Sequence record: PV857777.1
DNA from: Escherichia phage Ec_O157kw
Length of the DNA: 64,000 bases
Reading direction: 5' to 3' (one strand)
Shown here: piece by piece, positions 32,701 through 33,768 of the stretch
Numbering within the stretch: position 1 is the stretch's first letter
Layout of the letters: every line of letters begins with the position of its first letter
Notes under the pieces: generated by a model
Seen by the model: the letters and a program-made list of their open reading frames with translations, nothing else
Databases searched by the model: none
What the model was told of the DNA's origin: nothing
Program-made: the position numbers and the translations under genes

Positions 32701-33190
32701 TTTGACTAGTGAAATGAAGGTCAAAATTGCTGATACAGCAAGATACTCTTTAAAACAAAACCCGAACCAGGATAAAGCAGAAGTTATCGAAAGATGCCGT
32801 ATCGCGGTGTACGCAGAGTTTTTTGTAGCAGATTGGCTAAGCGGATATGTTAACAAAGGCCAAGAGGACGTTAATGACCCGTATACATACGCATGGGATG
32901 TATTGGCGCATCCAAGATACTGCGGGCTTCGTGTAGAAGTTAAGACACATCAAACTGACTCGCGTTGGATTTCGGTAACAACGGGATGCAGCGGAGAGTA
33001 TCCATATGGTTCTGGAATAAATCTAGGGCCCATTCTAAATCATCAAGTCGCTGACTGTATAATTATATTCAACACTAAAGAAATTCATCCAGGTGTCATC
33101 CAGTACACTCCGAAGTTCATCGGTGACAGAGAAGACCTTCGTAAGGTTGTAAGAAAAAGCAACTACAACGGATGGTATCTTTCCATTTAA
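32633..33190 (+). CDS. denB: endonuclease IV DenB (dC-specific ssDNA endonuclease)
   Basis: 185 aa, same length as T4 EndoIV; position after rIIB. Confidence 0.7.
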   Translation: MQKTNPGLQRLFQIPTFTLSNSDLTSEMKVKIADTARYSLKQNPNQDKAEVIERCRIAVYAEFFVADWLSGYVNKGQEDVNDPYTYAWDVLAHPRYCGLRVEVKTHQTDSRWISVTTGCSGEYPYGSGINLGPILNHQVADCIIIFNTKEIHPGVIQYTPKFIGDREDLRKVVRKSNYNGWYLSI

Positions 33191-33258
33191 AAATTTTTTC
33201 ACAAAACGGTTTACATACCACAAGGACCGTGGTACTATTACCCTATCAACTACGGAGG
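33190..33258 (+). promoter_or_regulatory. early promoter cassette
   Basis: aaaattttttcacaaaacgGTTTACataccacaaggaccgtGGTACTATtaccctatcaactacggagga. Confidence 0.7.
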
Positions 33259-33266
33259 AGCGGAAA

Positions 33267-33530
33267 ATGAAATTTAAATTTTATTACGCTAAACATAAAA
33301 TAACTGATGAGTTTGTGTCAGTTGAATATTCTAGCGACGATGAAGGTATGATTTATACTCGCTTGGGACTATCGCATTGGGAGTCTGATCAGCCTTATTT
33401 TTCAACTCCTGAAGAAATTACACGCTTAGTTAGTGGTCATATGAATGACCATTGGAATGTAATTCTTTCAGATAGTCTTAAAGCGGCTATTAATAGTAAT
33501 GAAATGAAAATCGCTGAGATTGAGCTATGA
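33267..33530 (+). CDS. hypothetical protein
   Basis: 87 aa. Confidence 0.55.
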   Translation: MKFKFYYAKHKITDEFVSVEYSSDDEGMIYTRLGLSHWESDQPYFSTPEEITRLVSGHMNDHWNVILSDSLKAAINSNEMKIAEIEL

Positions 33531-33609
33531 GTTCACTATGGTGGTGTTTTGTTTGGTTAATTAGTATTCCAGTAATTTGTTTAACATTTACTTTTGTAAT
33601 GAGGTTATT

Positions 33610-33708
33610 ATGAAAATTTTGAATTCTGTACTTATTGCTTGCGCGTGGTGGGTTGCACAGGTTTCAGCGGTAGTAGTTGGTATTCACATTTATTACGAAT
33701 ATTTTTAA
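33610..33708 (+). CDS. small hydrophobic peptide (32 aa)
   Basis: SD GAGG then ATG; single TM-like segment. Confidence 0.35.
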   Translation: MKILNSVLIACAWWVAQVSAVVVGIHIYYEYF

Positions 33709-33768
33709 AAAGTTGTTTACAAGACTGTTCTTCCGTGGTACTATTACCCTATCAACTACGGAGGAACA
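33702..33768 (+). promoter_or_regulatory. early promoter cassette, near-duplicate of 33190-33258
   Basis: 32-nt identical core cgtggtactattaccctatcaactacggagga; 5' half matches 5339-5368. Confidence 0.7.

Follow-up and report, generated by a model that had tools for sequence, protein, structure and literature searches.

The denB-ndd region of Escherichia phage Ec_O157kw (sequence record PV857777.1) raises the question of whether the near-identical early promoters found there are mobile regulatory cassettes, shuffled between loci, or members of a resident promoter family whose resemblance has other sources. We addressed this in a stretch of 64,000 nucleotides (nt) of this phage, here called the window, in which a preliminary description had flagged seven such sites, two of them in the interval 33190-33768, and had likened them to the promoter-early-stem-loop (PeSL) elements reported for T4-type phages. 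The observation is real and well above chance, and its interpretation is right in kind, in that these are mosaic early promoter cassettes of the PeSL type, some of them at module edges; it is, however, overstated on mobility, on terminators, and on breakpoints. The best explanation overall, which we consider probable, is a paralogous family of early promoters and leaders at fixed positions, shaped by a common consensus, by descent, and by occasional exchange between copies, with a subset of its members nested in hairpins.

Judged from their sequence, all seven flagged sites are sigma-70 early promoters of the T4 type with their 5' leaders, which point in the direction of the early genes and are presumably active as such in this phage (Table 1; the two copies in the denB-ndd interval are referred to as cassettes A and B). 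The arrangement GTTTAC-N15-TGGTACTAT occurs exactly at 5339, 33209, 33715, 36850, and 53543, compared to no occurrence in 100 dinucleotide shuffles, which bears out the flagged repeat family, and TGGTACTAT itself occurs 7 times in the window against 0.43 expected. These seven matches correspond to only six early promoters because one of them (62495) belongs to a MotA-box middle promoter at 62460-62503, where ATGCTTCC lies ~12 nt 5' of an extended -10 of the TGGTACTAT type. The family does not, however, share one extended motif across all seven sites, as had been claimed, since no single element is found in all of them. The A/T tract TTTTCACAAAAC is present in five of the seven (it is missing at 33702 and 54541), -35 GTTTAC in six (25013 has ATATAC), the TGGTACTAT -10 in six (54544 has TGATATTAT), and the TATCAACT box likewise in six, with TATCGGCA in its place at 53543.

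Measured against the sigma-70 consensus ((G)TTTAC(A), 17-bp spacer, TGnTAnnAT), five of the sites are exact and two near, and a consensus scan returns TTTACA-17-TACTAT with TG at 33210, 33716, and 36851. An UP-like A/T tract is found throughout, either as TTTTCACAAAAC following an A/T run (five sites) or as AAAAAGTT-type tracts (33702 and 54541), and all seven sites lie on the early-gene strand, with an ATG 52-73 nt 3' of the -35 and a Shine-Dalgarno sequence in between. The seven cassettes have orthologs in T4; the fPS-90 annotation independently predicts early promoters at five orthologous sites, and the -35 and -10 signals of the T4 motA promoter ortholog are deposited in record Z48569. In comparison to the T4 early promoters described by the Ruger, Hinton, and Uzan laboratories (reviewed in PMC2988021), the UP-like tract, -35, TGn, -10, orientation, and positions (e.g., motA) are all alike, and nothing essential differs beyond small blocks in the leader of A, the spacer of frd.3, and the +1 pentamer of motA. 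Each cassette would carry an UP-like tract rich in A/T, then the -35 (G)TTTACA and, across a spacer of 17 bp, an extended -10 TGnTAYTAT; transcription would start ~7 nt beyond this, ahead of a Shine-Dalgarno sequence of the GGAG type, and would be driven by unmodified host RNA polymerase straight after infection.

Particular copies share more than this. The sequence at 33715-33744 matches 5339-5368 at 29 of 30 positions, as claimed, and the block common to cassettes A and B, described as 32 of 32, is indeed identical but extends over 33 of 33 nt. The shared leader TATCAACTACTGATACAG is likewise present at 25048, with its second copy at 36885, one base off the claimed 36886. We arranged 16 early promoters of the window in 85 columns and shuffled each column independently (2000 shuffles), a procedure that retains the consensus and breaks the linkage between columns. 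The longest run shared by any of these promoters was 32, against a null maximum of 23, and runs of 15 or more were common to 10 promoter pairs, where the shuffles gave a mean of 0.39 and never more than 3. The promoter family therefore has sub-structure beyond the general T4 early-promoter consensus; together with the identities given above, this shows the copies to be mosaic, in shared blocks that are longer than the consensus predicts. A promoter and leader conserved in multiple copies within one genome, as expected of PeSL elements, is thus found here, and the clearest case of sub-structure is the spacer AAGACTGTTCTTCC, common to 5339 and 33715.

The similarity could still be that of a promoter consensus, reached by convergence or held by constraint, in which the extra blocks have a function (e.g., in Alt responsiveness) and no recombination between copies takes part. 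T4 early promoters do carry further consensus regions beyond UP, -35, TGn, and -10 (Hinton 2010, PMC2988021), orthologous cassettes are conserved above the genome average (0-2 differences per 115 nt, compared to ~95% genome identity), and the hairpin complementarity described below explains part of the spacer and leader sequence. However, the column-shuffle null is exceeded by far, and 5339 and 33715 have 14 of 15 spacer bases in common, yet the cassette at 5339 is without the complementary leader that would give this spacer a function, while other promoters of the same class have unrelated spacers. In addition, close relatives differ by block-wise allele swaps (three leader alleles of cassette A, the T4 frd.3 spacer, and the frd.1 mosaic), and the A and imm.1 cassettes of T4 have a lineage-specific indel state and 42+14 nt in common. 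We consider an explanation by consensus alone quite unlikely.

The swaps can be followed most closely in cassette A, which we read, together with cassette B, in T4, BECP11, RB32, RB6, fPS-90, UFV11, EC121, NBEco003, pSs-1, T6, PST, JB75, and five IMG/VR contigs (for the five others, the comparison covered T4, RB32, fPS-90, and BECP11, within the reach of the alignments). The 5' half of cassette A is the same everywhere (spacer ATACCACAAGGACYG), and its 3' half occurs as three alleles. The first, acaacTATCAACT(AC)TGATACGGATTTGGAGAATAAAATG, is found in T4, PST, UFV11, RB32, RB6, and T6, and is one mismatch from the leader at 5339 in the window, so that the latter resembles the cassette A allele of T4, PST, and RB32. 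The second, acaac/ataacTATCA(A/G)CTACGGAGGAG...ATG, is that of fPS-90, pSs-1, EC121, NBEco003, and JB75. The third, tacccTATCAACTACGGAGGAGCGGAAAATG, is found in the window and in BECP11, as well as in phage AR1, which is 100% identical across the 95-nt stretch of cassette A, and is present at 99% identity or above in only 6 of 420 matching records. Compared to cassette A of EC121, that of the window has acaac replaced by taccc, i.e., 4 substitutions in 5 bases, and otherwise differs by one base of a T-run. This replacement makes A identical to B, 506 nt downstream, where taccc is the pentamer in 17 of 18 genomes and contigs, and the reverse swap, B with acaac, is found in contig L022. The likeliest reading is that the third allele arose in this lineage when a short tract of A was converted, with B the probable donor.

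Elsewhere in the family, spacer type and +1 pentamer occur in all four possible combinations, and most mosaic combinations are already present in T4, including the spacer of cassette B, which is that of the imm.1 promoter; they are therefore older than the divergence of these phages. The frd.3 spacer has been replaced as a block in T4, and the frd.1 cassette of the window is a mosaic of alleles, T4/RB32-like in its 5' part and fPS-90-like in its 3' part. We also note that cassette A and the imm.1 cassette of T4 are identical for 42 nt from the -10 and then, after one mismatch, for 14 nt over the start codon (ATGAAAATCGCT), and that the two have a common CTACTG indel state, which is missing from cassette A in PST, RB32, and T6; the loss of ORF68 and ORF87 (ORF, open reading frame) in T4 may have been templated by the imm.1 cassette. 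The patchwork as a whole would have three sources: a strong functional consensus; the descent of promoter and leader segments from old common ancestors, most combinations being found in T4, PST, T6, the RB phages, and this phage; and occasional ectopic recombination or short-tract gene conversion between copies by the homologous-recombination system of the phage, which needs less than 50 bp of homology, according to the passage in Arbiol 2010 (PMC2839356) that cites Singer 1982.

None of this implies that the cassettes travel. They had been described as shuffled between loci, but as movable units they are not: every cassette that we checked lies at the same orthologous position in the compared phages. 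Cassette B is conserved in 18 of 18 genomes and contigs examined, and cassette B, the motA cassette, and the frd.3 cassette also have conserved neighbours. We dropped a reading as miniature inverted-repeat transposable elements or transposons, as there are no terminal inverted repeats and no target duplications and the positions are fixed. Possible A-B deletions, to which records matching only the 3' half of A had pointed, were likewise set aside, as JB75 has ordinary A and B cassettes.

This fixed placement bears on the strict form of the PeSL model, in which mobile promoter/terminator units recombine with neighbouring copies, excising and integrating ORF mini-circles and thereby creating differences in gene content. 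Mini-circles whose crossovers fall between the -10 and the ATG have been shown in RB49/phi1 (Arbiol 2010, PMC2839356), and the same was proposed for T4/PST at the ndd locus (Comeau 2014, PMC4122927); the direct repeats of A and B would offer 33 identical nt in exactly the zone from -10 to Shine-Dalgarno. However, an A-by-B excision or deletion product was found in none of the ~18 genomes and contigs inspected, and no inserted ORF here has cassette copies on both flanks. The stem-loop is, moreover, mostly missing. Several of the sites were thought to lie directly after a GC hairpin terminator, whereas this is the case for only two of the seven, with none at 33209 or 33715, and a third GC hairpin with a T-run precedes the unflagged promoter at 16031, giving 3 of at least 18 early promoters on the + strand of the window.

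The cassettes had also been taken to mark likely module boundaries at breakpoints of synteny, and this is borne out in part. By the identities around it, cassette A is a true allelic module boundary: ORF87 is ~72% identical between the window and fPS-90, compared to ~97% for the flanks (denB with the A promoter, and ndd.6), and the left edge of the divergent block falls in the A leader. ORF87 thus has two alleles, and it is deleted in T4, RB32, and RB6, in three separate losses whose AATGAAA(T) registers differ slightly. For the remaining cassettes, we aligned the whole window to T4, BECP11, RB32, and fPS-90 and, with homing-endonuclease, intron, and adhesin events set aside, counted 14 small-ORF indel or replacement loci, four of which touch cassettes (5339, 25013, 33209, and 54544; compared to T4, RB32, or fPS-90), all of them in the TATCAACT sub-family. 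Four of the seven flagged cassettes therefore abut indels, but the link is statistically weak, with a binomial p = 0.15 against all gene boundaries that carry promoters and, in a post hoc test, p = 0.0115 against the 7 sub-family boundaries.

Three points weigh against our account as it stands. The link between cassettes and indels has p = 0.15 when set against the ~105 early-strand gene boundaries (16 of them with promoters), and p = 0.15-0.44 with all early promoters as the baseline; the conversion of A by B is read from a single cluster of 4 substitutions, which, strictly, four independent point mutations could also have produced; and the start sites (near 5375, 25049, 33245, 33751, 36886, 53579, and 54580) are predictions from -10 spacing.

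The four abutting indels, together with a 258-nt insertion relative to fPS-90 that ends at the A/T tract of the frd.1 cassette, just before 54544, are what would be expected of mobile promoter units. Their junctions, however, are 6-8 nt start-codon microhomologies (ATGAAAAT, AAATGAAA), and similar ones are found equally at promoter-free boundaries (AATTATG at 26187/26564, AAATGAAA at 56032/56449, and TGAGGA at 21889/22131). ORF78 is absent from T4 and RB32 through a deletion between two ATGAAAAT start contexts, and ORF68 was lost in T6 at TAAAATG. The 89-aa ORF (25086-25355) that follows the 25013 promoter is intact in the window and in BECP11 and is reduced in T4, RB32, and fPS-90 to a short remnant with an internal deletion of ~200 nt and its start codon kept, the fPS-90 junction being one A shorter. 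In these respects, the events resemble the short-homology illegitimate deletions between direct repeats described by Albertini 1982 and Singer 1982 (both as cited by Comeau 2014 and Arbiol 2010), in that whole small ORFs are lost between 6-8 nt repeats (ATGAAAAT, AAATGAAA, AATTATG). The difference is that the repeats here are systematically the A-rich start-codon contexts of successive genes, and therefore a deletion removes exactly one ORF and keeps the translation signals. Small ORFs would accordingly be gained and lost mostly via start-codon microhomology rather than by promoter-to-promoter exchange, and the conserved cassettes would provide the crossover on the left when the variable first ORF is replaced by another allele.

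The published example of exchange at this same locus can be simplified in a similar way. PST and T4 differ at denB-ndd by one clean 449-bp deletion in T4, the remainder being identical at 527 of 535 positions. The coding sequences of ndd.6 and ndd.5 are present, although unannotated, in PST (L018 870-1113, compared to T4 L001 26816-26997), and in T4 a tiny ORF joined to the leader of cassette A is what remains of ORF87, namely its last 8 codons (MKIAEIEL). As judged from this alignment, a single 449-bp deletion accounts for the difference more simply than the integration of a mini-circle, by which the legend to Fig. 6A of Comeau 2014 (PMC4122927), on the denB-ndd locus, explains the exchange. 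Taken with the fixed positions, the scarcity of stem-loops, and the weak enrichment at breakpoints, this makes the strict PeSL model rather unlikely for the present phage.

The identification as PeSL elements nevertheless stands as far as the elements themselves are concerned. Like those of the T4/PST pair, with the denB-ndd locus among the published examples (Arbiol 2010, PMC2839356; Comeau 2014, PMC4122927), the cassettes have a strong sigma-70 early promoter with an A/T-rich upstream tract, a Shine-Dalgarno sequence, and an ATG, and are repeated through the early regions; they agree with the TTTACW-N17-TAYWAT consensus published for T4/PST and adjoin variable small ORFs. They differ in that most copies, including both in the flagged interval, are without the upstream stem-loop terminator (present at 36850, 53543, and the unflagged 16031), in that they are positionally fixed and have start-codon microhomology junctions at the neighbouring indels, and in that the published denB-ndd exchange reduces to the single deletion in T4.

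What may be new, and is the only part that may be, is the placement of some of these promoters within RNA hairpins. We folded the region from -31 to +27 of each of 18 early promoters as RNA and found that eight of them form hairpins that are essentially never reached by 300 dinucleotide shuffles, with z-scores down to -6.9. In cassette B, the promoter spacer pairs with the leader in a 15-bp stem (-22.7 kcal/mol, z -6.0) that appears in both the minimum free energy and the centroid folds of 33680-33800, with the -10 and the predicted start (~33751, from -10 spacing) inside the hairpin loop. When RNA from 33750 is folded instead, the Shine-Dalgarno sequence is unpaired, as the 5' arm is missing from the promoter's own predicted transcript. 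Comparable arrangements outside the flagged list are found at modB (-20.3 kcal/mol, z -6.4), motB.2, and alc (Table 1). Over all pairings of spacers and leaders, cognate duplexes have a mean of -10.6 kcal/mol, compared to -8.4 kcal/mol for non-cognate ones (permutation p = 0.0021), and the top non-cognate duplexes are those of paralogs (B spacer with A leader, and 5339 spacer with B leader). A comparison with 56 further start regions of the window also shows those beside promoters to be the more structured (Mann-Whitney p = 0.02).

On the strength of these folds, we tentatively propose, as a possibility that may well not hold, that a subset of early promoters (B, modB, motB.2, and alc) is nested in a hairpin the 3' arm of which is the translation start of the first gene, such that this gene would be translated only from its own immediate-early transcript and be silent on read-through. 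On transcripts reading through from upstream, the Shine-Dalgarno sequence or AUG would be hidden and ndd.4, modB, motB.2, and alc would be poorly translated, whereas transcripts from the cassette's own promoter would be without the 5' arm and have an open start region.

The comparative evidence for this proposal is uneven. In cassette B, 98.3% of cells are paired over 8 distinct alleles; the absence of any double change means that the structure is compatible with the data but not proven, and IMG/VR scans with DenB and ModB gave 8 and 9 loci only, too few for covariation in cassette B. The case for conservation is, by comparison of the sequences, much stronger at modB. Here, the pairing of the -10 region with the Shine-Dalgarno sequence and AUG is found in seven lineages belonging to at least six genera (Tequatrovirus, Mosigvirus (RB69 and ST2), a Kosakonia-phage-305-like lineage, Marfavirus, Karamvirus, Gelderlandvirus, and Jiaodavirus), with differing arm sequences, at -15.7 to -26.1 kcal/mol and z -3.5 to -8.9; in Marfavirus, for example, the -10 TAGTAT pairs with AUACUA. 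RNAalifold on the modB leaders gives 2 pairs with double changes despite a poor alignment, a count that is an underestimate because MAFFT misaligns the Marfavirus sequence.

Against the proposal, four of the eight significant hairpins do not involve a Shine-Dalgarno sequence (25013, 11061, 24416, and 54544), and cassette A and the 5339 cassette hold one arm each, with the partner arm missing. The four variable stem pairs of cassette B change on one side only, in G.U-compatible fashion and with no double compensatory change, and, as 17 of 30 possible transitions would keep pairing, this amounts to p ~0.1 only. No such hairpin is present at the ModB homolog of Muldoonvirus when its annotated start codon is used, and the RB69 early promoters, as a set, show no enrichment in spacer-leader complementarity (p = 0.73); the hairpin would therefore be specific to some promoters and not a property of the class.

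The logic proposed for these early genes has a close parallel in the hairpins that gate T4 late genes (e, soc, 49, I-TevI, segB, and mobE; PMC3014915, PMC2988022), where the Shine-Dalgarno sequence or AUG is likewise sequestered on upstream transcripts and a promoter in the 5' arm or loop gives rise to transcripts without that arm. Here, by contrast, the nested promoter is an early sigma-70 promoter, the genes that would be gated are early ones (ndd.4, modB, motB.2, and alc), and the effect, which is predicted only, would be to confine translation to the immediate-early window and not to delay it. Two reviews from 2010 give the promoter-inside-hairpin logic for late genes only, with the known cases in Edgell et al. 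2010 all late, and, as far as we could check, there is no earlier report of an early promoter in such an arrangement, although one may exist.

Alternatively, the inverted repeats could work as DNA and not as RNA hairpins, either by forming cruciforms or by serving as operators at which a dimeric repressor switches the early promoters off. The mechanism of early-promoter shut-off is unknown (Hinton 2010, PMC2988021), and short palindromes do bracket the -10 at 11061, 24416, and 54544, as well as at two promoters of RB69. However, the arm sequences differ between promoters, which leaves no common operator, some of the variable positions in B and modB form pairs of the G.U type, acceptable in RNA but mismatched in DNA, and four of the 3' arms coincide precisely with the Shine-Dalgarno sequence or AUG, such that we regard a DNA-level role as very improbable.

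The short inverted repeats bracketing the -10 are of interest in their own right. In the window they lie at 11068-11103, 24425-24459, and 54549-54575 (e.g., ACAAGACTA...TAGTCTTGT at the dmd promoter); the arms at the frd.1 promoter are GGGTA/TACCC in the window and T4 and GGCTA/TAGCC in fPS-90, which is a compensatory pair, and those of RB69 are of the same kind (GGACTAT...ATAGTCC and GGTCTAT...ATAGACC). Unusually stable upstream structure is also found at the starts of ndd (34483) and gene 32 (52562), which have no early promoter nearby (z ~-3.4 and -3.5). Gene 32 has a known autoregulatory leader, which the structure at its start probably reflects.

As for the genomic setting, a 4-kb stretch around the cassettes matches 870 phage records, with Escherichia phage vB_EcoM-BECP11 (Tequatrovirus) at the top (98.3%), and these matches identify the source of the window as a Tequatrovirus, i.e., a T4-like coliphage; an 801-bp stretch of the flagged region matches 500 records. 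The early genes run on the + strand of the window, in the order 45...43, imm, 42, uvsX, 41, 61, 56, soc, modB/A, dda, dexA, motB, cef, 39, rIIA (28984-31161), rIIB, denB (32633-33190), small ndd.x ORFs, ndd, 52, motA.1, motA (36921-37556), and arn...asiA; late tail-fibre genes follow on the opposite strand, and then rnh...59, 32, frd.3-frd, td, nrdA, and alc. Rfam, at gathering thresholds, matched no family in the entire window, and Pfam gave no match for the variable ORFs beside the cassettes (ORF87, ORF78, the 89-aa ORF, and ORF100), its matches in that scan being limited to DUF7247 (54853-55209) and HNH/NUMOD1 (60130-60858). The latter two domains belong to a 243-aa ORF 3' of nrdA (60130-60861), a homing endonuclease of the mob type, and the 728-nt segment that carries it is missing in RB32 and fPS-90. 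Between gene 56 and soc, an ORF of ~280 aa (14866-15717) with an HHILPK motif and no Pfam match is probably another free-standing endonuclease; its segment is missing even in BECP11, the closest relative, as well as in RB32 and fPS-90, and T4 has the unrelated segF at this position. Compared to T4, the large topoisomerase subunit gene 39/60 is unsplit and the mobA insert absent (window 26566-28706), and the phage is without the td intron (56999/57000), segG, dam, and the T4-type beta-glucosyltransferase/segA segment.

Table 1. Early promoter cassettes, repeats, hairpins, and adjoining features in the window (positions are those of the window).
Feature	Position	Strand	Remarks
Early promoter cassette after gene 43, 5' of ORF78 and imm.1	5320-5405	+	
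modB early promoter (outside the flagged list)	18124-18188	+	-10 TATGAT onward (from 18143; 5' arm 18143-18161) pairs with Shine-Dalgarno and AUG (to 18188)
motB.2 early promoter	23315-23374	+	spacer pairs with leader and Shine-Dalgarno, 23322-23364, -23.7 kcal/mol, z -6.0
Early promoter cassette 5' of the 89-aa ORF and cef	24994-25088	+	-35 ATATAC
Stem of the 25013 promoter	25019-25061	+	spacer ATCAGTAGTTGAT pairs with leader ATCAACTACTGAT
Cassette A, early promoter and leader after denB	33190-33269	+	TTTTCACAAAAC, GTTTAC at 33209, 17-bp spacer, TGGTACTAT 33230-33238
Cassette A leader		+	tacccTATCAACTACGGAGG; ATG at 33267
33-nt exact direct repeat, copy 1	33227-33259	+	CCGTGGTACTATTACCCTATCAACTACGGAGGA; spans -10 to Shine-Dalgarno
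ORF87, variable first gene after cassette A	33267-33530	+	no Pfam family
Cassette B, early promoter and leader of ndd.4	33702-33775	+	-35 at 33715, TGGTACTAT 33736-33744, ATG 33773
Cassette B inverted repeat	33725-33769	+	5' arm CTGTTCTTCCGTGGT (33725-33739) is the promoter spacer
Cassette B inverted repeat, 3' arm	33755-33769	+	ACTACGGAGGAACAG; leader including Shine-Dalgarno
33-nt exact direct repeat, copy 2	33733-33765	+	506 nt 3' of copy 1
GC hairpin and T-run (intrinsic terminator) after motA.1	36799-36820	+	directly 5' of the motA promoter
motA early promoter and leader	36829-36923	+	T4 ortholog signals in Z48569
GC hairpin and T-run (terminator) after gene 32	53494-53512	+	
frd.3 early promoter and leader	53519-53618	+	without TATCAACT box
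frd.1 early promoter and leader	54541-54602	+	TGATATTAT -10
alc early promoter	63658-63718	+	spacer pairs with leader and Shine-Dalgarno, 63664-63714, -24.4 kcal/mol, z -5.6

The phenomenon is the published PeSL of T4/PST, at the same denB-ndd locus, and is already known; the flagged finding in itself therefore matters little, as the early promoter family of the T-even phages and the PeSL idea are found again at a published locus. There are, however, two refinements. In the present sample, the cassettes are fixed landmarks and the turnover of small ORFs is mostly by start-codon microhomology, which tempers the picture of a mobile cassette, and the published T4/PST example is simplified to one deletion. 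If the nested hairpin is real, it would explain the conservation and co-inheritance of the spacers and leaders of the cassettes concerned. ModB is toxic when overproduced, and such a hairpin would provide for the post-transcriptional switch-off of toxic early proteins of this kind once the early promoters shut down. Should the early promoter in a hairpin work as predicted, it would be an early-gene counterpart to the classic translational control of T4.

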